Origin: an uncultured Gammaproteobacteria bacterium
GTDB taxonomy: Bacteria > Patescibacteriota > Microgenomatia > Levybacterales > UBA12049
DNA length: 40,334 nucleotides
Assembly: GCA_964508395.1 (NCBI GenBank)
Contig: CAZDTO010000001.1
Span: 1-40,334 of the forward strand
Direction: 5' to 3'
Below are positions 1 to 17,859 of the stretch, piece by piece (position 1 is the stretch's first letter; each line of letters begins with the position of its first letter). The position numbers and the translations under genes are program-made. The notes beneath the pieces were generated by a model. It saw only the letters and a list, made by a program, of their open reading frames with translations. It did not search any database and was not told the origin of the DNA.

Positions 1-36
1 TATAATGCCACTTCTCCATGAATTTAAAGCTGTGTG

Positions 37-551: not shown

Positions 552-553
552 GT

Positions 554-1039: not shown

Positions 1040-1227
1040 GTAATTTAAGTTTTGTCGGAAATCAGGAGAAATTTAAAACAAAATCGAATCAATATGTAGA
1101 AGGAAGATGGTGCAAAACCCATCCTGCGGGGTTTTGGGGCAAGAAATCAGACGGAACTTACTTTGATACTTGTACTAGAGGATATAGAGATCCGAAAAAT
1201 AAGTGCGAGATAGGAGAAAATGAATGA
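1036..1227 (+). CDS. hypothetical small Cys-containing protein
   Basis: Track ORF 1018..1227. ATG at 1036 is preceded by a G-rich SD (ggggggaaag). Confidence 0.45.
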   Translation: MSNLSFVGNQEKFKTKSNQYVEGRWCKTHPAGFWGKKSDGTYFDTCTRGYRDPKNKCEIGENE

Positions 1228-2571: not shown

Positions 2572-2864
2572 GCGACATTCAAATCTATAAAACTATTGCT
2601 AAATATGAAGACTTTTTGGATGACAAGATTCCAGAGAAGAGATTCCGGTTGGTCTATCCCAACAAGGAAGTATTTTATCTGACTGATGAGGAGAGAAATT
2701 TTTTACTTGCTCAGGTCAACGGCGGAGCAAGATATGTGCAGATCGGAGAACACACTTTTACTAATTCTTTCATAACTTTATATCCGATAAGAGAAGGCAG
2801 AAAGAAGGAGTGGTCTGAAGTTAAAGATGAATCCGGAAAAGTAGTTAAATTTCAAGAGGTGTGA
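2568..2864 (+). CDS. hypothetical protein
   Basis: Track ORF, ATGA overlap with the upstream gene. Confidence 0.5.
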   Translation: MSDIQIYKTIAKYEDFLDDKIPEKRFRLVYPNKEVFYLTDEERNFLLAQVNGGARYVQIGEHTFTNSFITLYPIREGRKKEWSEVKDESGKVVKFQEV

Positions 2865-2916
2865 GTATAAATAATAACTGGATTCTTTGGTTAATAATAA
2901 TTAGTTTTTTAGTGAT

Positions 2917-3099
2917 ATGGTTAGTATAAAAAAGGGTCAAAGATTAAGGAAAAGATTAGAGAAATTTTTTTGGGAAGAAAAACTTGGCCCAGTAAACCAA
3001 ATAGCTAGTCCAAACGAGAAACTTTATAAGTATGGCCAAGGTCAACTTAATAGTTTAATTGATAAGTTAATAAATATTTATGAAGCTCAAGATATATAA
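2917..3099 (+). CDS. hypothetical protein
   Basis: Track ORF, followed by a weak hairpin plus T-run (aagcaagaatgctttttt). Confidence 0.4.
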   Translation: MVSIKKGQRLRKRLEKFFWEEKLGPVNQIASPNEKLYKYGQGQLNSLIDKLINIYEAQDI

Positions 3100-3309
3100 G
3101 AAGACAGGTACATAAGCAAGAATGCTTTTTTAACCGATCCTGTAAAAACCAGACGGGATTAAAGCGAAGGGCAGAATAAGGAGAAGTTGAGGGGATTGTA
3201 AGTGTTCATGTATTTGACTCTAGCAGTCCCTTCAACAAAGCAATTGAGGGGTAAGAAAAGTAAAAGGAAGTGTGGGTATTGTCCATGACCACCTGCCCCT
3301 CAGCAAATT

Positions 3310-3618
3310 ATGAAAAAACATTTTTTTGAAGCAGGAAAGCAAAAATTAGTTAAGAGTAAAGTGTCTGGATATGTTTGTCTTTGTAGGGTTTGTGGCAAGA
3401 CAGCATTCGAACACACGAACTGGAAAGAGGGTTTTATGAGGACTGCAAGAGCTATACAAAGATCGGAAGAAAACTATCCAATCAAAAAACTACCAGTCAG
3501 GAGAGGCGTACAACTTAGCTCAACGCTGTCTGGTCAAAGAGAATTAATAAGAGAAATGAGAAACAAAATCAACGAAATTATTAAATATATAAATGAAGAT
3601 TATGAAAAAACCAAGTAA
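3310..3618 (+). CDS. hypothetical protein with CxCxxC motif
   Basis: Track ORF. Contains CLCRVCGK. Confidence 0.45.
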   Translation: MKKHFFEAGKQKLVKSKVSGYVCLCRVCGKTAFEHTNWKEGFMRTARAIQRSEENYPIKKLPVRRGVQLSSTLSGQRELIREMRNKINEIIKYINEDYEKTK

Positions 3619-3949
3619 AAAAACATTAAAATTAAGAGCCGATAAATTATTTAGAGATAAGGTTCGTTCTCTAGGTAGGTGTGAATTAAGAGGGCTAGAT
3701 CACATAGAGTGTTCTGGTGATCTGCAAACTATGCACATAATAGGCCGTAGTAATCACAGGTTGCGTTGGGAGCTACTCAATTCGATTTGCGGGTGTTCTG
3801 GTCATCACTTTTGGTATACTAACAATCCGTTCTACTTCTTTGAGTTAGTTAAAAGGGAATTTCCCGGCCGATATGAATTTGTTACCCAGTATAAGAATAC
3901 AGTTTGGGACAAGGATATAGAATCAGTTATTGCTAGATTACAAGTATGA
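3593..3949 (+). CDS. NinG/Rap-like or HNH-like nuclease candidate
   Basis: Pattern LFRDKVRSLGRCEL...LQTMHIIGRSNHRLRWELLNSICGCSGHH resembles the Cys/His layout of lambda NinG-type proteins. Recognised from memory only. Confidence 0.35.
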   Translation: MKIMKKPSKKTLKLRADKLFRDKVRSLGRCELRGLDHIECSGDLQTMHIIGRSNHRLRWELLNSICGCSGHHFWYTNNPFYFFELVKREFPGRYEFVTQYKNTVWDKDIESVIARLQV

Positions 3950-4143
3950 TATTTACACTTACAGATTCCCAAGTAAAAGAACAAAGGGAAGAAATGGTTG
4001 GGTGGCTTAATAGAGCTTTAAACCAAAAGCATGGAATAAGTATTCATAATATGCTCTTACATTTAAGATACATCTTAAAACAGTCACCTAAATACTCTTG
4101 GAATATAGATGGGAAGGAGAAATTTAAGTCTAAATCTAAATAA
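3946..4143 (+). CDS. hypothetical protein
   Basis: Track ORF, ATGA overlap. Confidence 0.45.
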   Translation: MIFTLTDSQVKEQREEMVGWLNRALNQKHGISIHNMLLHLRYILKQSPKYSWNIDGKEKFKSKSK

Positions 4144-4162
4144 AAGGCTCTAATTAGAAAAT

Positions 4163-4777
4163 ATGAAATTTACAACTAAACAAAAACAGGAACTTAAGAA
4201 AAAAGGTTATCTTATATTTTTTCTTTCTGGAAAATCGTTAGGAGAAATGAAAAATAAGGTTTACTCAAGTTGGCATAGGGAAGAAAATTTTGGAAAGGAA
4301 AAAGGAAGGAAAATGGAAGTAGCTTTTAATCCTAAATCAGAGATGAAATATAACTTAACTTATGATGAAGCTCAAGAGGAAGCTAAAAAGCCTACGGGAA
4401 TAGCAGGAACTCACTTTGAAATTCTCTCAATATCCGAGTATGTGGAGTTTAACAATTTATTTTATCAAAAAACAGGCAAGGAGCTTGAAGGATGGTATAC
4501 GTGGACTAATACTAAATTTGAGGACGGCCTCCGCCTTCTCGGTGGCTACTCTGACCTTGGTGGCTTGTCGTATGTCGATCGCGATTGGTCTGGCCATCGC
4601 CATGACGTTTTTGCCTTTCGTCCTCTGGTAGTTTCAGACCTTGAATCCTTGGAACCTAACCCCTTGGCCGTTCCCTTGGATATTAGTTCCTTGGATGAGA
4701 AATTAGATAAGATTGAAGAAAAACTGGATAAACTCATGGAACATCTGGGGGTTGGTGAGGAGAAAGAGATTTTATGA
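4163..4777 (+). CDS. hypothetical protein (204 aa)
   Basis: Track ORF. Ends in a conserved junction (GEEKEIL, then an ATGA overlap). Confidence 0.55.
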   Translation: MKFTTKQKQELKKKGYLIFFLSGKSLGEMKNKVYSSWHREENFGKEKGRKMEVAFNPKSEMKYNLTYDEAQEEAKKPTGIAGTHFEILSISEYVEFNNLFYQKTGKELEGWYTWTNTKFEDGLRLLGGYSDLGGLSYVDRDWSGHRHDVFAFRPLVVSDLESLEPNPLAVPLDISSLDEKLDKIEEKLDKLMEHLGVGEEKEIL

Positions 4778-5145
4778 AAACAACCGATAAGTATATTTTA
4801 AAAGGCAAGAAGGTCGTTCCAGAATATGACTTGATGAAATGGGCTAGATGGTTTGAAACAGCAGGCAAGACGAGAATTGTTAGACAAACGCAGATAATTA
4901 AAGGATTAAAGTTCGGCAAAAAAGCATTAGGAATACCCATAAAAATATCAACTGTATTCTTAGGACTAGATCATTCTTTTGCCTTTGGTAGAAATCATAT
5001 TCCTATTTTATTTGAAACTATGATATTTGGTGGAAAGCATGACCAGTATCAAGAAAGATACGCAACGTGGGAAGAAGCGGAAAAAGGACATAAAAAGGCA
5101 TTAAAACTTGTTAAGGAGTCCTTTAGTGAGGAGAAAGTTTTATGA
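4774..5145 (+). CDS. hypothetical protein
   Basis: Track ORF. Block LFETMIFGG...RYATWEEAEKGH looks like a recurrent phage family of unknown function. Confidence 0.55.
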   Translation: MKTTDKYILKGKKVVPEYDLMKWARWFETAGKTRIVRQTQIIKGLKFGKKALGIPIKISTVFLGLDHSFAFGRNHIPILFETMIFGGKHDQYQERYATWEEAEKGHKKALKLVKESFSEEKVL

Positions 5146-5318
5146 AAAAATATTTTTTTACAATAAAAGCTCACGAAGCACATAAAAACTCTAAGTATGA
5201 AGATTCTATTGGTAAAGAAATCTTTACGTGGCAAGCTATGGTTACACCAAAAGAATTAAAAGAGTTTTTAAAATATGCAACTAACGAATTATTGTCTGTT
5301 GAGAAAGAGGTTTTATGA
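5142..5318 (+). CDS. hypothetical small protein (58 aa)
   Basis: Hand-translated MKKYFFTIKAHEAHKNSKYEDSIGKEIFTWQAMVTPKELKEFLKYATNELLSVEKEVL. ATGA overlaps at both ends and the same junction motif as its neighbours. Confidence 0.5.
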   Translation: MKKYFFTIKAHEAHKNSKYEDSIGKEIFTWQAMVTPKELKEFLKYATNELLSVEKEVL

Positions 5319-5509
5319 AAGAATATATTAGATTTTTATATCACGATACCATGCGAGTAATTTGGAGTTACTATCATAAATTTATCTTGCATAAAGGAAG
5401 ATTTGGCATGAGGCAATGGTTGACTTGTAGACACCATAACCCTTTTTATATTTTAACTCCTAGACTTTTAAAGCAACAGTTTAAAAATGCGTGGGAGGCT
5501 GAATCATGA
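5315..5509 (+). CDS. hypothetical protein
   Basis: Track ORF, ATGA overlaps at both ends. Confidence 0.45.
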   Translation: MKEYIRFLYHDTMRVIWSYYHKFILHKGRFGMRQWLTCRHHNPFYILTPRLLKQQFKNAWEAES

Positions 5510-5973
5510 AAACTAATCCATCCCCTATATCGGTATCTGGTATAGAGAAACTACACAATATTTTTATTAAGAGTGGGGAAATATATTGGAGACAGGATAT
5601 TCAAGCAAAAATAGTTTCTCTTTTCCAATCCGAGCTCTCAAAAGCTAAAAAAGAGGGGGAGAAAGAAGTCTGGAAAAATAACTGTTACAAACATCATTCA
5701 AAAAGATTGGCATTGAGAAAAAAGTATTATCAAAAGTCTAAGCATAAATTTATTGGAGTAGTAACAACTGATAAAAGTATGTGGTGTGAAACACACGATA
5801 AATTTGAGAAGCTTAAAGAACAGGTTACTAATTTAACTGACACTCCTGTAATGTGTAAATGCGGAGATAAAAGAAAAGACCACTATAATAATTGGGGAGA
5901 ATATACAGGTTGCGGTAATAAGCTAAACTGTGGGTGCAGTAAATTTATTTTATCTAAATTAGAGGGGGAGTAA
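5506..5973 (+). CDS. hypothetical Cys-rich protein
   Basis: Track ORF. C-terminal CKCGDKRKDHYNNWGEYTGCGNKLNCGC. Confidence 0.5.
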   Translation: MKTNPSPISVSGIEKLHNIFIKSGEIYWRQDIQAKIVSLFQSELSKAKKEGEKEVWKNNCYKHHSKRLALRKKYYQKSKHKFIGVVTTDKSMWCETHDKFEKLKEQVTNLTDTPVMCKCGDKRKDHYNNWGEYTGCGNKLNCGCSKFILSKLEGE

Positions 5974-5983
5974 AGAATAGAGA

Positions 5984-6205
5984 ATGAAAAGCGAAAATGT
6001 AAAAGAAGAAAAAGTGTGGGAAACCCAGGGTTATCTTATTAGAGAGGCTTTAGTAAGAGAAATTATAGATGCTGAAAGGTGGCAAACAGTTGTATCTTGT
6101 TGGCAAGCCCTTCTTAAAGTTAAAATTATGATAAAAGAAGCACAAGAAGAAGATAAAATACTAACCCAATCTCAAATGGCTAATTCAGATGAAAGTAAAG
6201 GATAG
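5984..6205 (+). CDS. hypothetical protein
   Basis: Track ORF. Its start lies in a repeated junction gtaaagaatagagaatgaaaag. Confidence 0.45.
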   Translation: MKSENVKEEKVWETQGYLIREALVREIIDAERWQTVVSCWQALLKVKIMIKEAQEEDKILTQSQMANSDESKG

Positions 6206-6218
6206 AGAATGAAAGGGG

Positions 6219-6416
6219 GTGTTTAAAATTTCAACTTTACAATACGTCCAGCCAACAGACGAGCAAAAGGCAGTAATGCAGACTTTTAGAGATAAGTATG
6301 AGGTTCTTTTCAATGAATTAAAAGAACTTCCGAGCAGTCGTGGTATGTCGCTTGCATTAACAAAACTAGAAGAAAGTGCAATGTGGCTTAATAAAGCATT
6401 AACTAAAAACGATTAG
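6219..6416 (+). CDS. hypothetical protein (start uncertain)
   Basis: Track ORF with GTG start. An ATG at 6209 is separated from this frame by a G5 run. Confidence 0.4.
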   Translation: MFKISTLQYVQPTDEQKAVMQTFRDKYEVLFNELKELPSSRGMSLALTKLEESAMWLNKALTKND

Positions 6417-6491
6417 TCTTTTGCAACCATTTTACCGATGTCGGGAGAATGGTTATAGTAGATTAATTTTAGGATAGGAGGAATAGAAAAT

Positions 6492-6680
6492 ATGGCACAA
6501 ATAATTGAATTGATAATCACAAGTGATAATGAAGGCAATATAGACCTTTACTCAAAAAGTGGAAGTTGGATTGCACATAGCGATTTAAAAACAGAAGGTT
6601 GGTTTATGCCCAATGATTTATTAGAAGGAAAATTGAGAGATATTTTTAAGCCAAAAAAACCTAGAATAAATAATTTATGA
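6492..6680 (+). CDS. hypothetical protein (cassette A)
   Basis: Track ORF. Perfect SD aggagg, with conserved 5' and 3' flanks shared with the next ORF. Confidence 0.5.
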   Translation: MAQIIELIITSDNEGNIDLYSKSGSWIAHSDLKTEGWFMPNDLLEGKLRDIFKPKKPRINNL

Positions 6681-6708
6681 ATATTCCATTTAAGGAGGAA
6701 TAGAAAAT

Positions 6709-6996
6709 ATGACTACTAAAACCAAGATAAGAACAATACAAAAAGAGAATTGGAAAAAGATAAATTTTTTAATGGATTTAAGGCGAAAACAATTTGAAGA
6801 TTTATACCAAGAGAACTGGTGGAATTATTTAATTGAAGATAAATTATATAAACATTTATGCCAGAAACTCGTTGAGATTAAATTAATGGGTAGACCTATG
6901 TTTTTAATTGACAAAAAATTGTCAGAGGAGGATATTAAGAACTTAGCAAGTGGATTTATAAACGTAGCGAATTTTATTAAAAATATAGATTTATGA
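6709..6996 (+). CDS. hypothetical protein (cassette B)
   Basis: Track ORF. Same 19-nt 5' flank and 17-nt 3' flank as cassette A. Confidence 0.5.
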   Translation: MTTKTKIRTIQKENWKKINFLMDLRRKQFEDLYQENWWNYLIEDKLYKHLCQKLVEIKLMGRPMFLIDKKLSEEDIKNLASGFINVANFIKNIDL

Positions 6997-7112
6997 ATAT
7001 TCCATCTCCTACAGTAAAGGTAAAAGGGAAAAGGAAAAAGGTTCTAATCAAAGAATTAGTTATTGAGAGATTAAAATCAATACCCGATAATGTTAGAGTT
7101 TCTATTGGCTAA
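6993..7112 (+). CDS. hypothetical small basic protein (39 aa)
   Basis: Hand-translated MNIPSPTVKVKGKRKKVLIKELVIERLKSIPDNVRVSIG. Its first 13 nt are duplicated at 6677-6689. Confidence 0.3.
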   Translation: MNIPSPTVKVKGKRKKVLIKELVIERLKSIPDNVRVSIG

Positions 7113-7115
7113 TCT

Positions 7116-7271
7116 ATGAAATCTTTTACTACATCTATTAAGAAAAAGAAAGAGAAACTATTTATAGATAATTACAAAGACAAAGATTACAGATACGTTG
7201 TTATTACTTATCGAGATAAGATGGGAAATTTAAGCAGCAGCTCTGAATTTATAAAAAGATATGAAAACTAA
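7116..7271 (+). CDS. hypothetical small protein (51 aa)
   Basis: Hand-translated MKSFTTSIKKKKEKLFIDNYKDKDYRYVVITYRDKMGNLSSSSEFIKRYEN. Confidence 0.3.
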   Translation: MKSFTTSIKKKKEKLFIDNYKDKDYRYVVITYRDKMGNLSSSSEFIKRYEN

Positions 7272-7452
7272 CTCATCTATCGAGAAAAAGAAAGAAATGG
7301 TTTATAAGAGAGTTAAAGCCTTAATGCCTCACTGTAAAGATTGTGGGGAAGAATTATTTGGGAATAATAGTGTAGCCTTACCTTATAGATGCAGTTGCGG
7401 AACTTGGGAGCAGAATTGGTCAACGGGAGAATTTTATATTAAAATTAAATGA
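7261..7452 (+). CDS. hypothetical zinc-ribbon protein
   Basis: Track ORF. CKDCGEE...CSCG. Confidence 0.45.
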   Translation: MKTNSSIEKKKEMVYKRVKALMPHCKDCGEELFGNNSVALPYRCSCGTWEQNWSTGEFYIKIK

Positions 7453-8042
7453 CTAACTCATCTCATAAAGACAATAGGAAACATTTTCATACACCGTGGG
7501 GAAGTCCACCTTATTTATGCAAAGATAGTTTATGTGCCAAAATGCAACTTAAGACCCCAGAAGTAAAGGAGAAACCAATTTCGGATCGCCCCGAAAATGG
7601 TTGTGAGTGCCATTGTCATAAACCAACTCATGCAAAAACGATGTATTGTAATTGTAAGTGCTCTTGCTCTACCCCTAGAGAGGAATCTACTAATTACCAG
7701 TCAAGTAGTAGTAAACTAGGAGCAAACGTGGAAGGGTGGGAAAAGGAGTTTGAGGAACTTCCTGAATGGGAAACATGGCGTGATACTCCACCAGAAAAAG
7801 AAGATTATCAATATGATTTAGGATTCTTACAAGCACAAATTAAAATCTTTATTTCTAATTTGCTCCGTTCAGAGAGAAAAAGGTTGGTGGAGGAAATTAA
7901 AAAAAAGGTAAAAGAAGAATTAGAATTAACTAGGGTTAAGAATCTCAAAGGCTTAAAGGTTATAGATCAATTGAATGATATATTTGATTTCGCTTTTGAT
8001 GATGTTTTGGAGTACTTGGAGGAGGTATTTAAGGGAGATTGA
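7449..8042 (+). CDS. hypothetical Cys/His-rich protein with acidic coiled-coil C-terminus
   Basis: Track ORF. CECHCHKPTHAKTMYCNCKCSCS cluster. Confidence 0.5.
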   Translation: MTNSSHKDNRKHFHTPWGSPPYLCKDSLCAKMQLKTPEVKEKPISDRPENGCECHCHKPTHAKTMYCNCKCSCSTPREESTNYQSSSSKLGANVEGWEKEFEELPEWETWRDTPPEKEDYQYDLGFLQAQIKIFISNLLRSERKRLVEEIKKKVKEELELTRVKNLKGLKVIDQLNDIFDFAFDDVLEYLEEVFKGD

Positions 8043-8146
8043 GTTGGGGAGAATGTTGACTATTGACTCTATTATCGTAGTTCAAGAGTGCTCTTGGGCT
8101 AAATTGAATAGAGGGTTCTTCTCTCCAACTGAGTCTCTTTAAGAAT

Positions 8147-8347
8147 ATGAAGAAGATAATGTATAAACATCATATAGAGTTTTTGAAAAGAATAAATAAA
8201 GAATTTACAACTGAAGATGCACAAAAAATACTAGGTAAATCCAGCATGGCATTGGGAGGTTTTTTAGGTGCATTAGTAAAAAATAAATATATAGAACCAA
8301 TTTATAGAATAACTCGTTCGAATGTTGTTTATAAAAAACTTGTATGA
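8147..8347 (+). CDS. small winged-helix-like DNA-binding protein (regulator candidate)
   Basis: Track ORF. FTTEDAQKILGKSSMALGGFLGALVKNKYIEP resembles a wHTH. It sits between two copies of TATTGAC...TTATCGTAGTT. Confidence 0.4.
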   Translation: MKKIMYKHHIEFLKRINKEFTTEDAQKILGKSSMALGGFLGALVKNKYIEPIYRITRSNVVYKKLV

Positions 8348-8437
8348 ATGTAGTCAATCTCTTGATTGAGAAGAAGGAGAAATGAACCTATTTTGGCGGG
8401 GATACTAGTGCCCGCCAGCAATACGTTCGGGAGAAAG

Positions 8438-8463
8438 AGGAGGCTATTAACAGCTTCCTTTTT
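8438..8463 (+). terminator. intrinsic terminator candidate after the wHTH gene
   Basis: aggaggc (8438-8444) pairs with gcttcct (8453-8459, one G-U), followed by a T5 run. Confidence 0.4.
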
Positions 8464-8468
8464 CGTTA

Positions 8469-8497
8469 TTGACAAGTAATTTCGGATGTGTTATCGT
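8469..8497 (+). promoter_or_regulatory. sigma70-type promoter with extended -10 (late operon promoter candidate)
   Basis: TTGACA 8469-8474, 17-nt spacer, TGt 8489-8491, TATCGT 8492-8497. Confidence 0.5.
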
Positions 8498-8506
8498 AGT
8501 TGCATA

Positions 8507-8545
8507 CCCGAACGTTTCATTAAATTGAAAGGTGCGGGTTTTTTT
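8507..8545 (+). terminator. terminator/attenuator hairpin immediately downstream of the promoter
   Basis: cccgaac (8507-8513) pairs with gtgcggg (8532-8538, one mismatch), then a T7 run 8539-8545 abutting ATG 8546. Confidence 0.45.
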
Positions 8546-8785
8546 ATGGTTCAGAAGAATAGTCACAAGGACAGCCTGACAATTTTCAGAAACAATATGA
8601 TGCTGGAAATTGCCATTACGGAAGTTAATCTGAGAATGGCGGAAAGAGATAAACTTCTCGCAGTTGATATAAACCCTAATCTTTCAGCACACATTGCGGG
8701 CTTAACAGAAAAAATAAAATTAATACAAAAGAATATTGCTATGGTTGATAAACTTTTAGAAGAGGAGGAGAAAAAATTAAACTGA
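8546..8785 (+). CDS. hypothetical coiled-coil protein, first gene of the late operon
   Basis: Track ORF 8486..8785. The upstream part overlaps the promoter and leader hairpin, so ATG 8546 (MVQKNSHK) is preferred. Confidence 0.45.
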   Translation: MVQKNSHKDSLTIFRNNMMLEIAITEVNLRMAERDKLLAVDINPNLSAHIAGLTEKIKLIQKNIAMVDKLLEEEEKKLN

Positions 8786-8786
8786 T

Positions 8787-9143
8787 ATGGCTTTAATTCC
8801 GTCTCCAGGATTCATGTTACTTGAAAAAGTTCCCGTTCCTCACACCAGTAAGCTGGCTCGTTCCAACGAGGATACCGCAGACTCCAACTACGGCAAGGTT
8901 TTAGATTGGGGTCTGCCTTTACTGCAAGAGGGCGGAGTTGTCCTACAGATACCCAGATTTTCCATAGAGACTAATGAGGAAGGGTTGGGAGGTAAGGAAA
9001 GAAAGCTCAAGAAGGGGGACATAGTAGTTTTCGAGAAGAGAACGGAACGTAAAATGAATGATGATTATAGCTCGGGGGCAGATATAATTCAGGTTCGATT
9101 TGATTCACTGCTCGCTTTATTTATAGAGGAGGTAAGAGAATAA
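8787..9143 (+). CDS. groES: GroES-like co-chaperonin (Cpn10 family, divergent)
   Basis: LIPSPGFMLLEKV (cf. GroES i-P-l-g-d-r-v-l-v), NYGKVLDWG (cf. G-x-V-v-A-v-G), LKKGDIVVFEK (cf. v-k-v-G-D-x-V-l-f) and a terminal IIQVRFDSLLALF. Lies immediately upstream of the GroEL-like gene and overlaps it by 1 nt. Confidence 0.6.
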   Translation: MALIPSPGFMLLEKVPVPHTSKLARSNEDTADSNYGKVLDWGLPLLQEGGVVLQIPRFSIETNEEGLGGKERKLKKGDIVVFEKRTERKMNDDYSSGADIIQVRFDSLLALFIEEVRE

Positions 9144-10792
9144 TGGCAATAATTCCAAAAAGGGTAGAGTTTTCTACGGAGGCTCGAAACTATATCTTAA
9201 AAGGAGCTGGAATTATGGCTCGTGCAGTTGGAACTACCTTGGGGCCTAAAGGCAGGAATGTCTTACTATCCTCAAAATATGGTGGGATTATTGAGGTGCA
9301 TGACGGGGTGACTGTAAGTAACGAAACCAAGCTGGACGATCCTCGTGAAGACGCAGGAGCTACAGCTATACGAGACGCAGCCCGAAAGACTAATGATGCC
9401 TCCGGGGATGGCACTACCACCGCCACAGTTTTAGCTTACGAGATTTTACGGGAGGGGAACGCTTACATAATTGCAGGTAAGAACCCCATGTTGATGCAGA
9501 AAGGTATTGATACTGCGGCTAAGCAGGCGGTCGAACTCCTAAAAGAAATGGCAGAACCTATTAAAGAATCTTTAGAGAAGATGATCCAGGTGGCTACAGT
9601 CTCGGCAGCTGATGAGGAGATAGGAAAAGTTATAGCTGAGGCTCTTAAAAAAGTAGGCAAATACGGAGTGGTGACGGTAGACAAGGGTAACGAATTGGGC
9701 TATCATACCGAGTTTAAGGACGGTATGGAGTGGGATAAAGGCTGGATACATCCTGGTTTTGTTTTAAGGGTGCTTGACGGTAAGCCTAACGTGAGGTTAG
9801 AAGCTAAGGTTGAGGAACCCTTTGTTTTGGTGACCGATCACACGATCACTTCGCGATTAGAGATACTACCCTTTTTGGAGAGGTTTGTGGAGGCGGGACA
9901 CAAAAACTTGCTTATTATCTGTGACGGAGTAGAGAGAGAAGCAATGGTTATTTTAGGAGCGCAGTTTGAACGGGGAGTAATTAATGTCTTGCCTGTTCCC
10001 GCCCCCTCATTTGGTGAGCATAAAAGAGATGGTCTGGAAGACATTGCTATTTTAACGGGCGGAGTGTTTGTCTCTAAAGAGATGGGAATGAACATCAAGG
10101 ACATTAAGCTAGACGTTGAGCCGCAGATATTAGGTAGGGCTGATTCGGTTGTTGCCACCCAAACTTCAACAGTCCTTATAGGAGGCAGGGGTGATCCGGA
10201 GAAAGTCAAGGCCAGGGCAAAACAAATCGAAGAACAATTAAAGGATGCGGATCATGAGTTGAAGAAAGAGAAGTACATCGAAAGGCTTGCCAAGCTGACT
10301 TCGGGAGTAGCGGTAGTTAAGGTCGGGACATCTGGGGATGCGGAAAACAGAGAAAAGACCGAGAGGGTTAAGGATGCCATAGGTGCTACCAAGGCTGCGG
10401 TGGAGGAAGGGATTGTACCTGGAGGCGGAATAGCCTTGCTAGAAATAGCTCAAAAGATAAACACCAATTTGGGTTCTGAGGAGGAAAATCTAGGGGCAGA
10501 AATTTTAAAGAAAGCTCTATTAAAACCAATTAAACTATTAGTAGAAAATGCCGGGGGCAGTCCTGATGTAGTTATTAACGAGATTCTTAAAAAGGAAGCG
10601 GGAACAGGCTATAATGTGGTTACAGGAAAGTATGTTGACATGAAGAAGGCGGGAATTGTGGATCCACTCAAAGTTACTATCTCCGCAGTACAAAATGCGG
10701 CAAGTGTGGGGGGGATGTTATTGACTGTAGAGGCAACCATAACTGATATGCCTGATCCCGAAAGAGAGAAAAAAGAACAGCAAGGAGAATAA
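9143..10792 (+). CDS. groEL: GroEL-like chaperonin (Cpn60 family)
   Basis: 549 aa. Hallmark blocks TLGPKGRNVLL, DGVTV, GDGTTTATVLA, AVVKVG, EEGIVPGGG, GIVDPLKV. Lacks the C-terminal GGM repeat tail. Confidence 0.9.
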   Translation: MAIIPKRVEFSTEARNYILKGAGIMARAVGTTLGPKGRNVLLSSKYGGIIEVHDGVTVSNETKLDDPREDAGATAIRDAARKTNDASGDGTTTATVLAYEILREGNAYIIAGKNPMLMQKGIDTAAKQAVELLKEMAEPIKESLEKMIQVATVSAADEEIGKVIAEALKKVGKYGVVTVDKGNELGYHTEFKDGMEWDKGWIHPGFVLRVLDGKPNVRLEAKVEEPFVLVTDHTITSRLEILPFLERFVEAGHKNLLIICDGVEREAMVILGAQFERGVINVLPVPAPSFGEHKRDGLEDIAILTGGVFVSKEMGMNIKDIKLDVEPQILGRADSVVATQTSTVLIGGRGDPEKVKARAKQIEEQLKDADHELKKEKYIERLAKLTSGVAVVKVGTSGDAENREKTERVKDAIGATKAAVEEGIVPGGGIALLEIAQKINTNLGSEEENLGAEILKKALLKPIKLLVENAGGSPDVVINEILKKEAGTGYNVVTGKYVDMKKAGIVDPLKVTISAVQNAASVGGMLLTVEATITDMPDPEREKKEQQGE

Positions 10793-11046
10793 TGAATACA
10801 GAAACTGGCGAACAATTCATAAAGAGAATTATTAAATGTTCTCTATCCGCTCTCTTTGCAATAGGGGTTACAAGCCCCCAAAACATTGATAAATTAGTTA
10901 ATCATTTTACAGAGGAGTTAATGAAAAACTATCCTGTTGTGCCTAGCGAGCCAACAAATGAGCCTATTCCTGAAAATGCAAGACCGCAGGATGCCCCACA
11001 AGCCCCCCAAAAAGAAGAAGTTGACATAGTAGTAGGGGAGAAATAG
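10792..11046 (+). CDS. hypothetical protein
   Basis: Track ORF, TAATG overlap with the GroEL gene. Confidence 0.45.
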   Translation: MNTETGEQFIKRIIKCSLSALFAIGVTSPQNIDKLVNHFTEELMKNYPVVPSEPTNEPIPENARPQDAPQAPQKEEVDIVVGEK

Positions 11047-12005: not shown

Positions 12006-12442
12006 CTGAACAAAAAACCGATATTAAACAACTTCAAGTAATCTTTGGGGAGGATTTAGACTTATTGTTATTTTATCTTGCTTGGATTAAAAATGGACTT
12101 AATGCCACTAGAGCTTATAAAGAATTGCACCCAAACGTAACAAATGGAAGTGCGGAGGTTTTGGGTTCAAGGGCGTTAGGAAAAGTTAGTAAAGAGTTAA
12201 TTATGCAAGCCTATGGGTTGGATCAACAAATATACTTCGACCAATTAAAAGAAGGAATTGATGCTACTAAGTGGAATGATTTTACAGGCGAGAGGGAAGC
12301 AGACCATAAGACAAGACGGGAATACCACAAGACGCTTGGAAAATTATTAGGAATAGAAAGAGATGATGAAACCCCACCAATTCAAGTGAATGTAGGAGTA
12401 TTTAACAATGCAACTATGGCAAAAAGATATTCAATAAAATGA
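12002..12442 (+). CDS. terS: terminase small subunit
   Basis: LFYLAWIKNGLNATRAYKELHPNVTNGSAEVLGSRALGK matches the Terminase_2-type HTH pattern (N-A-T-x-A-y...a...as.ll). Lies directly upstream of TerL. Confidence 0.7.
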   Translation: MTEQKTDIKQLQVIFGEDLDLLLFYLAWIKNGLNATRAYKELHPNVTNGSAEVLGSRALGKVSKELIMQAYGLDQQIYFDQLKEGIDATKWNDFTGEREADHKTRREYHKTLGKLLGIERDDETPPIQVNVGVFNNATMAKRYSIK

Positions 12443-13359
12443 GAGCTTTTGGAGAAAACATCAATTATCAATCGTTTATCGAGGATAACTTCCTTATCAA
12501 AAACAAGGATGGAATAGTTGTACCATTCCTTTTTGACATCTTCCAGGAGGGACAGATCAGATCAGTACAGGACTACTACATGGTTGACCTATACCGACAC
12601 TATGGCGATGAGCTTGAGGGCGTGAGGGATATTGTCCTCAAGGGACGCAAAGAGGGGTTTAGCGCAATGATACTGGGTATGTTTGCTACCGACTTCTTAA
12701 TGTCGGAACACCCGATCGGCTGCGTATCTATTGCGGATACAAAAGAGGAAACTCAGAGACTATTGAGCAGGGCTAAGTTTTTTATAGAGTCGGCAGCAAT
12801 AAAAGAAAATAGTAAGCTAACGGACATTTGCGATATAGTCAGTAAAAACCAGTTGCGCAATAAGTGGAACGGGGCGGAGTTTTGGATTGGTACAGCAGGG
12901 AGTAAGGTTGCATTGCGTACCGAAACAGTTCAGGACTTGCATTTTTCAGAAGCAGCCTACTTTGCCGATACGGATATCATAACTGCCACAGAGACGATTG
13001 AAGGGGCGTTGCAGATGGTTCCGCAAGGCAAGGGGAAGGTGTTTATCGAGTCAACTGCTAACGGATATGGCAACTATTATCAGGACTTGTGGGATAAGGC
13101 CAGTTTAGGCGAGAGTACCTTTAGACCAGTATTCTATGGAGCTGACCAGTTCTACTCAAAAGAATGGCTGGCTATCAAAGAGATAGACTTTACGACCAGA
13201 GAGATGTTCTGGCAGGAATATCCTAATAGCCCGGGGCAGGCTTTTATTTCCAGCGGCAGTAAGTTTTTTGATACAGAAGCCATACTGTGGTTGCAAAAAG
13301 AGGTTGTTAGAAAGCCTCTGATTGAGGGCAATCTGAACATATACGGAGAGATAGTTTAA
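12439..13359 (+). CDS. terL: terminase large subunit, N-terminal ATPase half only
   Basis: VLKGRKEGFS (Walker A-like), VQDLHFSEAAYF (Walker B/catalytic Glu region), IESTANG (coupling motif), FWQEYPNSPGQAF. Stops at TAA 13357-13359 with no nuclease domain. Confidence 0.8.
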   Translation: MRAFGENINYQSFIEDNFLIKNKDGIVVPFLFDIFQEGQIRSVQDYYMVDLYRHYGDELEGVRDIVLKGRKEGFSAMILGMFATDFLMSEHPIGCVSIADTKEETQRLLSRAKFFIESAAIKENSKLTDICDIVSKNQLRNKWNGAEFWIGTAGSKVALRTETVQDLHFSEAAYFADTDIITATETIEGALQMVPQGKGKVFIESTANGYGNYYQDLWDKASLGESTFRPVFYGADQFYSKEWLAIKEIDFTTREMFWQEYPNSPGQAFISSGSKFFDTEAILWLQKEVVRKPLIEGNLNIYGEIV

Positions 13360-13643
13360 TGAAGTATTTAATAGTAGCTAAATTAAAGAAACAAAAACAG
13401 CAAGGGGGAAAATACTTTTTTCTATCTGATAAAGATTACGAGAGGTATATTGATGAAATGTCAGAATTTAACCCGAAACTTACAGGTAGTTTAGTTAAAG
13501 GCAGTTCAGCGGTGTTAAGTGAAGATGGAGTATTCCTGACCCCTGCTCAACAAGGAATCCCACTCTTATTTTATTGTGGTTTGCCTGTTTTTAGGAAGAG
13601 GTATAAAAAGTTAGTTAAAAGTATTTATGGGGAGATTGTATGA
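13359..13643 (+). CDS. hypothetical protein whose C-terminal tail copies the TerL-N tail
   Basis: Track ORF. Ends ...FRKRYKKLVKSIYGEIV, compared with the TerL-N end ...VRKPLIEGNLNIYGEIV. Confidence 0.5.
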   Translation: MKYLIVAKLKKQKQQGGKYFFLSDKDYERYIDEMSEFNPKLTGSLVKGSSAVLSEDGVFLTPAQQGIPLLFYCGLPVFRKRYKKLVKSIYGEIV

Positions 13644-13891
13644 AAAGATGGTTTGATGATTGGAAGATAGAAACAGAAAATGAACGAAAAAACTATGTTC
13701 GCTTAATACTGCGGTTACCTCATACAAAGTCAAAGCAGAAATTTTTGATGTTAACAGTTAAAAGGAATGGTGGATTACATTGGTTATTTAGCCACTTTGA
13801 ATTAGCTTTAATGAATTTATCAGAGTCTGTAGAAATAACTTTACCAGAAGACACAAAGGTTGTCAAAACAATATATAAAGAATTAAAATGA
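13640..13891 (+). CDS. hypothetical protein
   Basis: Track ORF, ATGA overlaps at both ends. Confidence 0.45.
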   Translation: MKRWFDDWKIETENERKNYVRLILRLPHTKSKQKFLMLTVKRNGGLHWLFSHFELALMNLSESVEITLPEDTKVVKTIYKELK

Positions 13892-14670
13892 ATCCTGCCG
13901 AAGTAATCAGTGAAGTTCTACAATCAATAGCTGAGAAAGCTCAAGTAGGCGTTAATTTATTGGAACTTGAAAAGAGAGCAGAGACTACTATACAAATAAG
14001 AGGAGCCGTTTCGGCAAACAAAAACTATCAACCTCAATGGGCGAAGACACCCTTCCCTTCTGTGGTGTGTCTGGGAGTCAACGATCAAGTAGGACACAAC
14101 ATACCCAGGGATTATGTCTTACAAGATGGTGATCTCTTAAAGATAGACTGCGGTATCACAATCAATGGTCAGGCAGGAGACGCAGGACTCACCATTCCTA
14201 TAGGCAAGATTAGCGATAGGGATGAGAGACTGCTAAGGTATACCAAGAGAGCTTTGTACCGAGGTATCCAAGCTATTCAAGTAGGCGGCAAGGTTAGCGA
14301 GGTAGGCAAAGTTATTGAACGCTATATAATGCAGATGGGATTGGCTGTTGTCAGACAGATGAACGGTCATGGTATAGGAGCGCAGATGCACATGGAGCCG
14401 GCCATCCCGCACTTTATCGTACCGCAAAAGAGAGTCGGGAAGAAGTACGAGTATACCGAGGTTGACTTGGGTACTTTCCGCGAGGGACAGATAGTATGCA
14501 TTGAACCTCATGTTACCTATCATAGCGATGTGGTCAAGGAGGACGATTGGGGTTTGAAAACTAGAGATGGGCGCAAGTCAGCAATGTTTGAACATATGGT
14601 AGAGATTAGTTCATCGGGAGTAAGAATTTTAACAACGCATATTGCAGAGGAGGTGAATTATGGAGAATAA
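13888..14670 (+). CDS. map: methionine aminopeptidase, type I-like
   Basis: Pita-bread fold motifs with all expected metal ligands visible: VGHNIP, KIDCG (Asp), GDAGLT (Asp), GHGIG (His), CIEP (Glu), FEHMV (Glu). Confidence 0.8.
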   Translation: MNPAEVISEVLQSIAEKAQVGVNLLELEKRAETTIQIRGAVSANKNYQPQWAKTPFPSVVCLGVNDQVGHNIPRDYVLQDGDLLKIDCGITINGQAGDAGLTIPIGKISDRDERLLRYTKRALYRGIQAIQVGGKVSEVGKVIERYIMQMGLAVVRQMNGHGIGAQMHMEPAIPHFIVPQKRVGKKYEYTEVDLGTFREGQIVCIEPHVTYHSDVVKEDDWGLKTRDGRKSAMFEHMVEISSSGVRILTTHIAEEVNYGE

Positions 14671-14920
14671 AAATATATTTGTCGCCGGTATCCCCTGGGC
14701 TTTTGATGACCTAAAGTTAAGTGAACTCTTTGCGAAACACGGAGCGGTAGTCTCGGCTAAAGTTATAACTGACAGAGATACGGGGAGATCAAAAGGCTAT
14801 GGTTTTGTTGAGATGTCAACATCAGAGGAAGCCCAAAGCGCAATCAAAAACCTTGACGGTACTGATCTTAATGGGCGAAAATTGGTAGTCAATGCCGCAA
14901 AACCAAGAAGGGAGGTATAA
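14660..14920 (+). CDS. RRM-type RNA-binding protein
   Basis: 86 aa. RNP2-like IFVAGI and a perfect RNP1 KGYGFVEM (14792-14815). Overall it resembles small bacterial RRM (Rbp) proteins. Confidence 0.8.
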   Translation: MENKNIFVAGIPWAFDDLKLSELFAKHGAVVSAKVITDRDTGRSKGYGFVEMSTSEEAQSAIKNLDGTDLNGRKLVVNAAKPRREV

Positions 14921-15141
14921 TGAGCAGTTGTGTCGTTTGTGAAAAACCTTTGGCGAAGTATCATTGCTTGCCCGATGTATATTACTGTGTCAGTCCAAGA
15001 TGTACGAACTTGGGGTTGTTAACAGTGATTGTTTTAACGCCTCAAGCGACTAAAACGGAGGTAAAAGATGATAAAGTTGTACCGCAATCTGGAAGCGTTG
15101 GAGCCGATAGTCCTGTCGGGGGATCCGGGGGAAGGAATTAG
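14920..15141 (+). CDS. hypothetical zinc-ribbon protein
   Basis: Track ORF. CVVCEKP...CVSPRC. The last 74 nt overlap TerL-C in another frame, so the C-terminus is uncertain. Confidence 0.35.
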   Translation: MSSCVVCEKPLAKYHCLPDVYYCVSPRCTNLGLLTVIVLTPQATKTEVKDDKVVPQSGSVGADSPVGGSGGRN

Positions 15142-15748
15142 TTTTGCCGCAGGAGTTTGTATAAGCAAGAAGTACCATGATGTACCGCTTGTTTATCATG
15201 CAAGGATTGAATCTCCCGCTTTTGGGAACGAGCTCTACAAAATGGGGCTGTTTGTTAAGAAAAAAACAGGGGACTTTCCTTTATTGGCTGTAGAACGAAA
15301 CATCGGTGCAGCTACAATAGCCAAACTCATTGAGCTGGAGTACCCGTACGGCAAGCTATACAGGCAGAAAACCTTTGACAGAATACTGCGTCAGGAAGAA
15401 GACAGGATAGGATGGGTTACAACATCTACCAACAGAAGAAAGATGCTGGATGATCTGGCTTTGGCTATCCGTAGAAAAGAGTTGAAAGTCTACGATAAAG
15501 ATATTGTAGATGAGATGCTTACCTTTATTATTGCGGAACGCACAGGAGAACCAAGACCTGAGCGTAACCACTTCTCTGATCTGATTATGGCATTGGCAAT
15601 AGCAAATCAAATAGCGGGAGAAAACAGAATAGCGGCGAAGTGGGCGCCGACAATAGAGAAGAAGGAGAAAGATAACTATTTGCCTGAGAAAGCGGAAGGT
15701 TTTATTACCGAAAAATGGCAAGAAAAAAGAGATTGGCGATCAGGTTAG
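15068..15748 (+). CDS. terL: terminase large subunit, C-terminal RNase H-like nuclease half only
   Basis: IVLSGDPGEG (first catalytic Asp strand), AVERNIGAATI, GWVTTSTNRRKMLDDL, HFSDLIMALAIANQ. Own SD GGAGG 15057-15061 and an in-frame TAA 15062-15064 just upstream. Confidence 0.75.
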   Translation: MIKLYRNLEALEPIVLSGDPGEGISFAAGVCISKKYHDVPLVYHARIESPAFGNELYKMGLFVKKKTGDFPLLAVERNIGAATIAKLIELEYPYGKLYRQKTFDRILRQEEDRIGWVTTSTNRRKMLDDLALAIRRKELKVYDKDIVDEMLTFIIAERTGEPRPERNHFSDLIMALAIANQIAGENRIAAKWAPTIEKKEKDNYLPEKAEGFITEKWQEKRDWRSG

Positions 15749-15751
15749 GTA

Positions 15752-15780
15752 TTGACAAACGAGAAAATTAAGATAATAAT
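15752..15780 (+). promoter_or_regulatory. sigma70-type promoter candidate upstream of the portal gene
   Basis: TTGACA 15752-15757, ~17-nt spacer, A/T-rich -10 (gataataat). Confidence 0.35.
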
Positions 15781-15825
15781 ATTAGAGCCTATGATCTTTG
15801 TAGCAGGTATTTACGAGCGTAATTT

Positions 15826-17859
15826 ATGGCACTGCCAACTGTGGCGGAGGATACAAAAGAAGGCGCTGGCGAAATACAACAATGGTCTACTATTGATACC
15901 TCTGATGCAGACCTCATAAAAATAATCAACAAAAGGATTCAGAACGCAACCAAAGACTTTGAGGAACTCCGCACCGAAGGTTTAAGAAATGAACGCTACT
16001 GGTCTAAGGATCACTTACAGGGTATTGATCTTCGCTGGCATAACTCCCGTATCGTACAAAATAGAATTTACCTGAATGTGGAGACAATGGTTCCTATTAT
16101 TACCTCAAAGCCCGCCGAGCCTGTCATCAGTATCGTCAACGATGAAGAAGAAGAAACGCAAAAAAGCAGAGACTTTATATCATCTTTGCAAAAAGTCTTA
16201 TTAGATAAATACTACGATGAGGATTACCCCCAACAGGAACTTTTTGAGATGATTGCCCGCCACCTTTTACTTTTTAAGATCGGTATTCCTAAGATAGTCT
16301 GGTATGACGATATTGATGATTTTGTCGTTGAGTTTGTCCATCCCCACAAAATGATGGTAGGGGCGGACGGATATTACAGCAGTGATGTTTGGACCGCGCA
16401 ATATCTTGAAAAGTCGGTTAAGGAATTGGTTGATGAATTTCCAGAAAAGAAAGATGAATTTTTGTTAAAGTTATTTCCTAACGCGGGAGGAGGCATTGAG
16501 CAATTTGGAGACACTCCTGTTGGCTTCTGGGAATATATGCCTGAAGACGGCAGGTATATAGTCTGGAAAATGCGGGATGTTATTTTGCAGAAAAAAATTA
16601 ATCCATATATTAAATGGACTGATGACAAGAAATTTGACAAGGAAAACAACCATTTCGATTACTCAAAAAAGCCTACTATGTTTCTTAACTCCCAGACTTT
16701 AGGCAGGCATATCTGGGATGACACCTCAGTTGTCAGTCAGGCTATTCCTTTGCAGGATGGCATCAATTTAATGCAAAGGATTATTACCGATACGTCAAGA
16801 GATCAGGGTATTCTCGTGGGAGCAATGGAGTTGATCGATAAAGACGAACTCTATAAGTACACGGGAGGGTACAGCGAAAAACTGGCGGTAACAGGAAGCG
16901 ATCCGACAAAGGCTTTGCATCGAGTAGACCCCAAGAAGTTAGAGGCTTTTATACAGGATAATCTTTTGCACCTAGAGAATGCTTTGGATAATGTGATGGG
17001 TGTTCATTCAACAACGCGGGGAGAAAAGAGCAGCCAGCCGACATTGGGACAGGATCAACTTTCAAAGGAAGGGGATTACGGAAGAATTGACGGAATTGTC
17101 AGAGGAATAGAGAGAGTAGCTTCAGAGATATATAGCTGGGAAATCCAGATGATGGCAGTCAAGTACAAAGAGAAACATTTTCAGAGAATATTGGGGAATA
17201 AAAGGGGCAAAGAGTTTTACAAAGAGTTTAAGGAAGCTCTGAAGAAAGGTATTAAGATTATCATTAAGGCAGGATCAACTCTGCCTACAGACAAGCGCAC
17301 TCAAAGAGACGAGGCAATAGAACTTGCTAAGGCGGACAAGATTAGCAACCTCGACTTTTTTGAGCGCATGGATTACCCAAACCCCAAGAAGATGGCACAG
17401 AACTTGTGGCTAGAGCAGAACGCTCCCGAAGAACTGTACCCTGAATTAGTTGAGCAAATAACGGCAAAGAAGGAAAAGGATGCGGCGGCAATGCAGGAGC
17501 AAGTGGCAGCGCAACAAGCACCTGTACCTGTTACACAAGTACCAAATGGCGTAACAAATGGACAAGCAATGCCTAATGGTCAGATGGGACAAACTACGCC
17601 AATGGGACAACCCGCTTCCCAAACTCTAGCAGTCGAACCTACAGAACACACGCAAGCCCTCTTATCAGGACAGCAAGTAGAACCTTTTGAGGGTATTGAT
17701 TCCGCACAAGCAGAGGATCATCTTATAAGAGAGTTGCAGTTTGTGGGATCTGATGAATTTATGCAGTTATCAGAAGATATACAGGCTATCTATGCGCAAC
17801 ACGTTGTAGCGGAAAAGGAGATATTGGAACAGCAGACAGGACAACAATCTTATGCCTAA
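15826..17859 (+). CDS. portal protein
   Basis: 677 aa ORF immediately after the terminase. Size and position are typical. Q/P-rich low-complexity stretch near the C-terminus. No motif-level confirmation possible by eye. Confidence 0.6.
   Translation: MALPTVAEDTKEGAGEIQQWSTIDTSDADLIKIINKRIQNATKDFEELRTEGLRNERYWSKDHLQGIDLRWHNSRIVQNRIYLNVETMVPIITSKPAEPVISIVNDEEEETQKSRDFISSLQKVLLDKYYDEDYPQQELFEMIARHLLLFKIGIPKIVWYDDIDDFVVEFVHPHKMMVGADGYYSSDVWTAQYLEKSVKELVDEFPEKKDEFLLKLFPNAGGGIEQFGDTPVGFWEYMPEDGRYIVWKMRDVILQKKINPYIKWTDDKKFDKENNHFDYSKKPTMFLNSQTLGRHIWDDTSVVSQAIPLQDGINLMQRIITDTSRDQGILVGAMELIDKDELYKYTGGYSEKLAVTGSDPTKALHRVDPKKLEAFIQDNLLHLENALDNVMGVHSTTRGEKSSQPTLGQDQLSKEGDYGRIDGIVRGIERVASEIYSWEIQMMAVKYKEKHFQRILGNKRGKEFYKEFKEALKKGIKIIIKAGSTLPTDKRTQRDEAIELAKADKISNLDFFERMDYPNPKKMAQNLWLEQNAPEELYPELVEQITAKKEKDAAAMQEQVAAQQAPVPVTQVPNGVTNGQAMPNGQMGQTTPMGQPASQTLAVEPTEHTQALLSGQQVEPFEGIDSAQAEDHLIRELQFVGSDEFMQLSEDIQAIYAQHVVAEKEILEQQTGQQSYA

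Follow-up and report, generated by a model that had tools for sequence, protein, structure and literature searches.

A predicted Cpn10-type lid gene coupled to a group I groEL in an approximately 40 kb phage genome

The contig CAZDTO010000001.1 (assembly GCA_964508395.1), taken here as a single window of 40,334 nucleotides, carries three closely packed genes for a predicted helical hairpin, a divergent co-chaperonin of the Cpn10/GroES type and a group I chaperonin of the Cpn60/GroEL type. An earlier reading made from the letters alone (hereafter the sequence-only reading) had placed three open reading frames (ORFs) at this locus and had proposed that they include a complete GroES-like and GroEL-like pair within a 40 kb phage. 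The ORFs are present, on the plus strand, and the pair is borne out by the gene identities and by the capsid, portal and terminase genes around it. The genes of the module are as follows.

8546-8785, plus strand: ORF80, 79 amino acids (aa), modelled as a two-helix hairpin
8787-9143, plus strand: 118 aa ORF, divergent Cpn10/GroES type by fold and profile links
9143-10792, plus strand: GroEL/Cpn60, group I, 549 aa, with Pfam, PHROG and PDB matches

A single nucleotide separates the stop codon of ORF80 from the start codon of the 118 aa ORF (TGAtATG), and the 118 aa ORF in turn overlaps groEL by 1 nt in a TAATG junction, with a GAGGAGG Shine-Dalgarno sequence about 10 nt upstream.

The window is phage DNA, as indicated by a major head protein (19832-20878; phrog_9953, 2.1e-38), terminase pieces and a portal homologue. 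All of its long ORFs lie on one strand, and tRNA and Rfam scans of the window gave no matches. The order ORF80-Cpn10-GroEL is kept on nine other contigs from different samples (L003/L004, L005, L006, L009, L010, L013, L015 and L016), which represent genomes of about 37-42 kb, and the module holds the same position across these relatives, between early genes and the genes for terminase, portal and capsid. By our count the Cpn10 gene directly adjoins groEL in seven of the nine, with ORFs intervening in the others (L006 and L003/L004). GroEL homologues at 55-95% identity are found on contigs with maximum lengths clustering at 37.5-42 kb, and the proteins of the module are present in public databases without a name. 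Ratios of nonsynonymous to synonymous substitution (dN/dS), calculated by the Nei-Gojobori method against close relatives, are 0.02-0.05 for GroEL, 0.09-0.15 for Cpn10 and 0.17-0.25 for ORF80; judged by these ratios, all three genes are under purifying selection. The guanine-plus-cytosine (GC) content of the window is about 0.31-0.37 in the early region (1-9000) and about 0.40-0.49 from the chaperonin through the structural genes (9000-37000), and it falls after 38 kb.

On its sequence matches, the 549 aa protein is almost certainly a group I chaperonin, GroEL. It matches Pfam Cpn60_TCP1 at 1.2e-63 (215.9 bits against a curated cut-off of 34.3), phrog_5725 at 3.3e-128 and, over its full length, GroELs in the PDB at 1e-120 to 1e-130 (best 1.7e-130), with group II chaperonins at 1e-30. 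The motifs GDGTTTATVLA, TLGPKGRNV and EEGIVPGGG and the non-GGM tail that the sequence-only reading had quoted are all in the translation, the C-terminal tail being charged (PDPEREKKEQQGE). When the protein is aligned to enterobacterial (Salmonella) GroEL, to which it is 43% identical, and residues are given in E. coli numbering, the 21 nucleotide-site positions checked all carry the same residue or a conservative replacement (I150V, A480V); LGPKG31-35, D52, D87, T89-91, D398, GGG414-416 and D495 are among the identical ones. The apical groove, the surface for substrates and for the GroES loop, is altered (Y199W, S201H, Y203G, L259M, V263G, V264A, N265Q), so that a canonical hydrophobic groove is not found: W199, G203, M259, G263 and A264 stand beside the retained F204, L234 and L237. 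These changes are common to the whole phage GroEL clade, and the nearest cellular GroELs, which belong to the candidate phyla radiation (CPR), are canonical there; the canonical groove is a functional signature and does not decide membership of the Cpn60 family. The phage protein also has a 6-aa apical insertion after position 207. Of the salt-bridge residues, the protein retains D83, replaces R197 and E386 conservatively (R197K, E386D) and has lost K327 (K327Q). Of the inter-ring contact residues, R452, E461 and K105 are changed (R452K, E461S, K105A), and A109 and V464 persist.

The 118 aa ORF is very probably a Cpn10 homologue, to judge from its predicted fold and from comparisons between profiles. 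Its AlphaFold2 (AF2) model was built from a seven-sequence alignment and has a predicted local distance difference test (pLDDT) score of 71.9 and a predicted TM score (pTM) of 0.68. In a Foldseek search of the PDB with this model, the top 31 matches are all Cpn10/GroES (probability 1.00, target TM 0.58-0.75), and the next ranks are three chloroplast Cpn10-type chains (all in one ClpP complex) and T4 gp31 (1g31, E = 0.045), ahead of any unrelated fold. In BFVD the top 50 matches have probability 1.00; some are nameless, and all the named ones are viral GroES/Cpn10-type co-chaperonins. In hhalign, the profile of the subclade to which the ORF belongs aligns over its full length with the positional equivalent in L006 (97.8%, E 7e-13) and with the Cpn10 of L005 (93.8%, E 1.7e-7), which has a precomputed Pfam Cpn10 match. 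The same subclade profile (A1), run with HMMER against 1.84 billion representatives, matches 16 proteins only, including P0129 at 3.6e-17, a protein that itself scores 42.3 bits in Pfam Cpn10, above the cut-off of 21.1. Pfam Cpn10 is matched by 11 of the 14 aligned family members (the query counted among the 14), and the family profile finds Cpn10 chains only in the PDB, down to 2.4e-10. The ORF itself has a marginal PHROG GroES match (E = 0.036), and it adjoins groEL in the same orientation, an arrangement kept in relatives. Two of the 16 proteins, P0128 (5007 aa) and P0135 (2115 aa, a surface protein of tandem-repeat and FG-GAP/VCBS-like type), are long and repetitive and match profile positions of about 16-64 in 35 and 5 stretches, respectively; these matches are most likely due to chance inflated by the repeats.

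The sequence-only reading had also called the mobile loop of this ORF unusual, and this proved correct. The loop (about residues 16-34) contains HTSKLARSNED and is 3-5 residues shorter than in other family members, nearly all of which keep T-K-x-G-[IVL]-Y-[ILV]-P. That motif corresponds to GroES G24-I25-V26-L27, whose tripeptide docks between GroEL helices H and I. The full set of a glycine followed by three hydrophobic residues (E. coli G24-I25-V26-L27) is thus not found in the 118 aa ORF. Throughout the subclade (the window, L013, L015, L016 and P0003-P0007) the loop reads H-T-S-K-L-A-[RK], and S21, K22 and L23 are invariant across seven subclade sequences at 60-100% identity. The roof-hairpin region (about residues 52-72) holds about 17 extra residues, LQIPRFSIETNEEGLGGKERK; this insertion also occurs in L006, L009 and most family members and is absent from L005, L010 and cellular GroES.

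Outside the phage clade, identity to the GroEL drops to about 51%, the named matches being Microgenomates, Shapirobacteria and 'Patescibacteria group'; it is 46-47% for Chloroflexi and 38.6% for both a Flavobacterium phage and the phage record MW202566. In neighbour-joining trees of the best matches plus a few outgroups, 29 phage GroELs are monophyletic (bootstrap 100), as is the CPR set (100), and the two group together at 77%. A comparison with 50,697 phage records gave full-length matches to the major capsid protein in only two (MW202566.1 and MG269973.1) and matches to the portal protein in the same two only, with 22-33% capsid and portal identity; Myxococcus phage Mx8 gives a partial capsid match. 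MG269973.1 is TM7 phage DolZOral124_53_65 (38,840 bp, circular), with candidate division TM7 as its recorded host, and MW202566.1 is a Caudoviricetes sp. from Manatee Spring (38,956 bp, circular). A scan of 185,579 GTDB species genomes for prophage or host copies returned no close relative, only an unrelated Clostridiales GroEL at 39%. Taken together, the GroEL phylogeny and the likeness of capsid and portal to those of the TM7 phage tilt the balance somewhat towards a host among the Patescibacteria (CPR). A literature search on chaperonins in CPR phages found no paper discussing them.

Phage chaperonin pairs are already known as a kind, and the novelty that the sequence-only reading had seen in a matched pair was overstated: GroES>GroEL operons are common in viromes (PMC5649160), cultured Flavobacterium phages carry an annotated pair, and an identical or similar module occurs in two complete GenBank genomes of about 39 kb, MW202566.1 and, its upstream ORF being unconfirmed, MG269973.1. 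GroES, in either order, accompanies GroEL on 40% of GroEL-bearing virome contigs (Marine 2017, ISME J, PMC5649160), and the same study cites Cellulophaga phages with viral GroES>GroEL operons, reports polar substitutions in the loop tripeptide of 23% of viral GroES, roof-hairpin deletions in viral GroES and small heat-shock genes upstream of GroES>GroEL, and infers genomes larger than 70 kb for GroEL-bearing viruses (PMC5649160). The virome operons share with the present module a GroEL divergent from cellular ones, variation in the GroES loop and roof, and an accessory gene upstream; they differ in having a roof deletion where an insertion of about 17 aa is found here, and a small heat-shock protein where the 79 aa helical hairpin is found here. 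Flavobacterium phage vB_FspM_immuto (NC_055915) likewise has an annotated GroES upstream of a group I GroEL in the canonical order, but its genome is about 160 kb, against about 40 kb here, its GroEL is 38.6% identical, and its GroES passes Pfam (4e-21).

The two phages with capsid and portal matches fall in the same genome size class and have a Cpn60 with a small ORF directly upstream. In MW202566.1 the order is also the same (small ORF, groEL, small ORFs, terminase, portal), although its GroEL is 38.6% identical and its upstream ORF, which the record labels 'mhsp60', is a sub-threshold Cpn10 (E = 0.0031). The Cpn60 of MG269973.1 is more distant, with 28% identity (E 8e-43), a length shortened to 480 aa and GDSTT instead of GDGTTT. 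The module of that phage lies at 14894-16625, with a 100 aa ORF that overlaps the Cpn60 gene from upstream and begins with PLPGFALV, resembling a Cpn10 N-terminus; this ORF was not confirmed as Cpn10 either by hhalign against the family profile (5.6%) or by Pfam (not significant). BLASTP of the window's 118 aa ORF to the GroES of MW202566 and of the Flavobacterium phage failed.

T4 gp31 and RB49 CocO resemble the 118 aa protein as phage lids of the Cpn10 fold with low sequence similarity to GroES. They differ in that they use the host GroEL, the phage encoding none, and in that the roof hairpin missing there is extended here; the mobile loop, known to be longer in gp31 (PMC5649160), is shorter here. 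The gp31/CocO combination of a deleted roof, an extended loop and no phage GroEL is accordingly not what the 118 aa ORF presents. Pseudomonas phage EL gp146 (as well as the OBP and AR9 chaperonins) resembles the GroEL here in that its nucleotide pocket is conserved and its apical H/I groove altered. It belongs, however, to a giant phage, has no known co-chaperonin and many indels, and is without the D83-K327 and R197-E386 bridges (PMC7185714); its divergence as a GroEL is far greater, and it functions with no lid (PMC7185714). The GroEL here does not have the features of such a co-chaperonin-independent type, with a Cpn10 partner present, 43% identity and D83 kept. What is new at this locus is that the pair belongs to a class of genomes of about 40 kb, with a likely host in the CPR, that a conserved gene for a helical hairpin precedes the lid gene, that the roof is extended, and that the docking tripeptide, which faces a remodelled groove, is nearly lost in the subclade.

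Further features around the pair are the following.

8395-8416, plus strand: GC-rich hairpin, GGCGGG-10 nt-CCCGCC, read from the sequence
8469-8497, plus strand: candidate sigma-70-like promoter, TTGACA-17 nt-TATCGT, its -10 preceded by TG
10792-11046, plus strand: 84 aa ORF after groEL, coupled to it by TAATG
13888-14670, plus strand: type I methionine aminopeptidase (MAP), 260 aa, Peptidase_M24

The chaperonin block is preceded by the largest local gap, about 200 nt (8348-8545), which follows the last early-region ORF. The promoter-like site in this gap (10 of 12 matches) lies 49 nt upstream of the start of ORF80 and is a candidate only, because the 17 promoter-like sites of the region are no enrichment over the 14.4 expected from shuffles. 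The hairpin, which may mark a transcript boundary, is without a T-run and was not called by the terminator scan. In L003/L004 the chaperonin block begins at a strand switch, which fits a block that would be the start of a transcription unit. The sequence-only reading had put the pair first after a late promoter, a placement that is unsupported: the gap holds the hairpin and one sigma-70-like site of a sort not enriched in the region. The ORF list places the start of ORF80 at 8486 (99 aa) instead of 8546, and the 79/80 aa form appears likelier because homologues align from the 8546 ATG and the promoter-like site overlaps 8486.

ORF80 had been described as a coiled coil, and the AF2 model fits that description with two confidently predicted helices at residues 4-39 and 44-78 (pLDDT 89.6), although searches of Pfam, PHROG and Foldseek gave it no match. 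Its homologues, 21-32% identical in alignment A3, immediately precede the Cpn10 gene on each of the nine related module contigs examined; ORF80 may regulate the chaperonin module or be its third component. The homologues lie at L003:2758-3018, L005:3457-3714, L006:3024-3275, L009:5403-5657, L010:2220-2468, L013:2915-3154, L015:1856-2098 and L016:135-374, and the family ends in an invariant Asn. The junction between Cpn10 and GroEL tolerates insertions, as L003/L004 and L006 carry ORFs there: a 113 aa ORF (3343-3684) with a HAD-phosphatase-like VDFDGV start in L003, the same in L004, and two 58 aa ORFs in L006. The L003 ORF at 3343-3684 had been considered as the Cpn10 equivalent and was rejected by hhalign; the true equivalent is L003:3018-3359. 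On the other side of groEL, the TAATG junction with the 84 aa ORF is preceded by AAGGAG, and the N-terminal GEQ.IK…ALFAIG of that ORF is shared with longer proteins downstream of GroEL in relatives (L009:7586-8035, L010:4405-4815, L006:5829-6263 and L013:5167-6016). The L006 homologue has a weak match to RNA_pol_A_CTD (the C-terminal domain of the RNA polymerase alpha subunit), and in L013 the same place holds one more gene, of 196 aa, that matches HTH_3 and sigma-70 region 4; the locus after GroEL may be a transcription factor locus.

The MAP, which the sequence-only reading had assigned to the same operon, is real and part of a conserved phage gene set. It matches Pfam Peptidase_M24 at 8.3e-34 (117.6 bits against a cut-off of 23), which by profile marks it as a type I MAP. 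Its homologues at 40-100% identity are on contigs of 37-44 kb, and cellular MAPs reach at most 37%, so that by sequence comparison the MAP, like GroEL, is a hallmark of the same phage family; none was seen in the annotation of MW202566.1 or MG269973.1. The ORF at 23012-23290 (92 aa), which had been proposed as a CxxCxGxG zinc-finger protein with a role in folding, sits between structural genes and has a low-complexity, highly acidic, Lys/Val-rich N-terminal half followed by one CPDC, 26 aa and one CPNCEGHG, a C-terminal, zinc-knuckle-like pair. It was rejected as a zinc finger of the DnaJ type, which requires four CxxCxGxG repeats against the single unit found here, and it has no Pfam or PHROG match. 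The self-contained protein-biogenesis toolkit envisaged by the sequence-only reading consequently rests on the chaperonin and the MAP only.

The large terminase is apparently split between 12439-13359 (306 aa), which matches the N-terminal part of phrog_38407 as well as phrog_26724, and 15068-15748 (226 aa), with matches to phrog_24361 'terminase' (3e-8) and to phrog_38407 in its C-terminal part. BLASTP of the halves against the MW202566 terminase was uninformative, and the PHROG profiles linked them. Five ORFs lie between the halves (13359-15141), in the same order in L005 and L013, and include the MAP and an 86 aa protein with a single RNA recognition motif (RRM) domain (14660-14920; Pfam RRM_1 1.9e-21) that overlaps the MAP stop, is also present in L013 and is unusual for a small phage. 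The N-terminal terminase ORF of L013 is 568 aa long and has a weak intein-splicing match. A 31-nt direct repeat occurs twice, 114 nt apart, at 30059-30203, in Gly-rich coding sequence within the ORF at 29786-30655 (phrog_2295, 4.3e-42).

The observations are best explained by a phage group I chaperonin module that has likely been long kept by tailed phages of about 38-42 kb, with CPR/Patescibacteria as probable hosts. We propose that the three coupled genes form its core, a helical hairpin (ORF80), a Cpn10-type lid and a GroEL-type ATPase, at the head of a block that leads into the packaging and virion genes. The GroEL, whose catalytic residues are present, would assemble into heptameric rings that bind and hydrolyse ATP, and a heptamer of the phage Cpn10 would cap the ring. 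The complex would then fold phage proteins made in bulk, presumably late in infection, the likeliest client being the HK97-type major capsid protein by analogy with T4 gp23/GroEL/gp31. The contact between lid and ring appears to have diverged on both sides, with a changed GroEL H/I groove and a subclade lid loop reduced to the invariant S-K-L, so the pair would probably be private, with no partner exchange with host GroES/GroEL. That such a private lid-ring pair folds late phage proteins seems to us reasonably probable. A stronger version, in which a rewired lid-ring interface insulates the pair from host GroES/GroEL, docks in a mode unseen in studied group I chaperonins and belongs to a three-part system of approximately 40 kb Patescibacteria phages, we rate as rather unlikely.

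Several results weigh against this interpretation. The lack of enrichment of promoter-like sites has been described above. The link to the host is indirect, joining a GroEL only about 51% identical to that of CPR bacteria with capsid and portal proteins 26-31% identical to those of a phage of a different CPR lineage, and the GTDB scan returned no relative. Because the inter-ring residues differ (E461S, K105A), a double ring cannot be taken for granted. Lid binding by the 118 aa protein is not assured either, given a loop without the Gly and two of the three docking hydrophobics. Changes in GroEL helices H and I that would compensate for, and track, the loss of the Cpn10 loop were sought and none were seen; these helices are nearly the same in the subclade and in L006, whose Cpn10 keeps GVYLP. 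The model of the 118 aa ORF is of limited, moderate confidence (pLDDT 71.9), and direct sequence searches with this ORF were blank: no Pfam Cpn10 (PF00166) match appeared at E<=1, and phmmer against the PDB found nothing, with a seven-sequence profile as well. Pfam did return weak Cupin matches (E ~0.1), and together these results are what would favour an unrelated small beta-barrel protein lying upstream of GroEL by chance. We consider that explanation very unlikely in view of profile-profile matches that extend over the full length of Pfam-positive Cpn10s in the corresponding genomic position, the Pfam-positive majority of the aligned family and the ranking of Cpn10/GroES and gp31 chains ahead of any unrelated fold. 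Moreover, the Pfam Cpn10 signal in relatives lies mainly at model positions 2-52 (first strand and mobile loop), and the direct Pfam search fails because the altered part of the ORF is precisely the N-terminal half with the mobile loop that carries this signal. A failure in Cpn10 profile searches had been named in advance as grounds for giving up the assignment, and for Pfam the failure is literal; it is overturned by the family-level profiles and the fold, which uphold a divergent Cpn10-like ORF with an unusual mobile loop where the direct Pfam and PDB searches are silent.

The main rival, which we regard as unlikely, is that the subclade Cpn10 has lost its lid function, so that the GroEL acts alone, as EL gp146 does, or with the host GroES, and the 118 aa protein has another role. 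The shortened loop without the glycine and hydrophobic tripeptide kept by nearly all other members invites this explanation, as do the changes in apical groove residues that are required for GroES and substrate binding in E. coli, and EL is a precedent for a phage GroEL acting alone (PMC7185714). Yet the Cpn10 gene is still translationally coupled to groEL and under purifying selection (dN/dS 0.09-0.15), and the residual S-K-L is invariant in the seven sequences. The GroEL, for its part, is far nearer to the canonical form (43% identity, D83 kept, R197K and E386D conservative) than EL gp146, in which only the nucleotide pocket is conserved; a canonical loop of a host GroES would face a non-canonical groove; and 23% of viral GroES have polar tripeptide residues in any case (PMC5649160). 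That the pair is instead host DNA, mis-binned or mis-assembled, or was transferred very recently from host to phage, is extremely improbable. GroES>GroEL is the canonical bacterial operon order, the GC content climbs at about 9 kb from 0.31-0.37 to 0.40-0.49, and the cellular GroELs nearest to it form one coherent group (CPR). However, at least nine further contigs, from different samples, carry the same module in the same place, its GroEL belongs to a clade with bootstrap 100 and is at most 51% identical to any cellular GroEL, the higher GC spans the whole structural region and not the chaperonin genes alone, and no close relative exists in the 185,579 GTDB species genomes. We therefore reject recent transfer and also mis-binning, which the sequence-only reading had itself named as grounds for giving up its proposal.

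Phage GroEL has so far been tied to large genomes (>70 kb, PMC5649160), whereas the family described here devotes about 5% of a genome of about 38-42 kb to the pair and carries a MAP in addition; this expenditure suggests that these phages are limited by how much folding the host can provide. The Cpn10 variants form a natural series, with a canonical loop in relatives and the minimal S-K-L here against a nearly identical groove; the series offers a system for studying what lid docking requires of the loop, and it also bears on how orthogonal chaperonin pairs evolve. If a rewired private chaperonin and a MAP do act together, the phage would bring its own protein-maturation capacity into a host with a minimal proteome, and if that host is a CPR bacterium, the module would be among the few functional clues to how phages exploit ultra-small cells.

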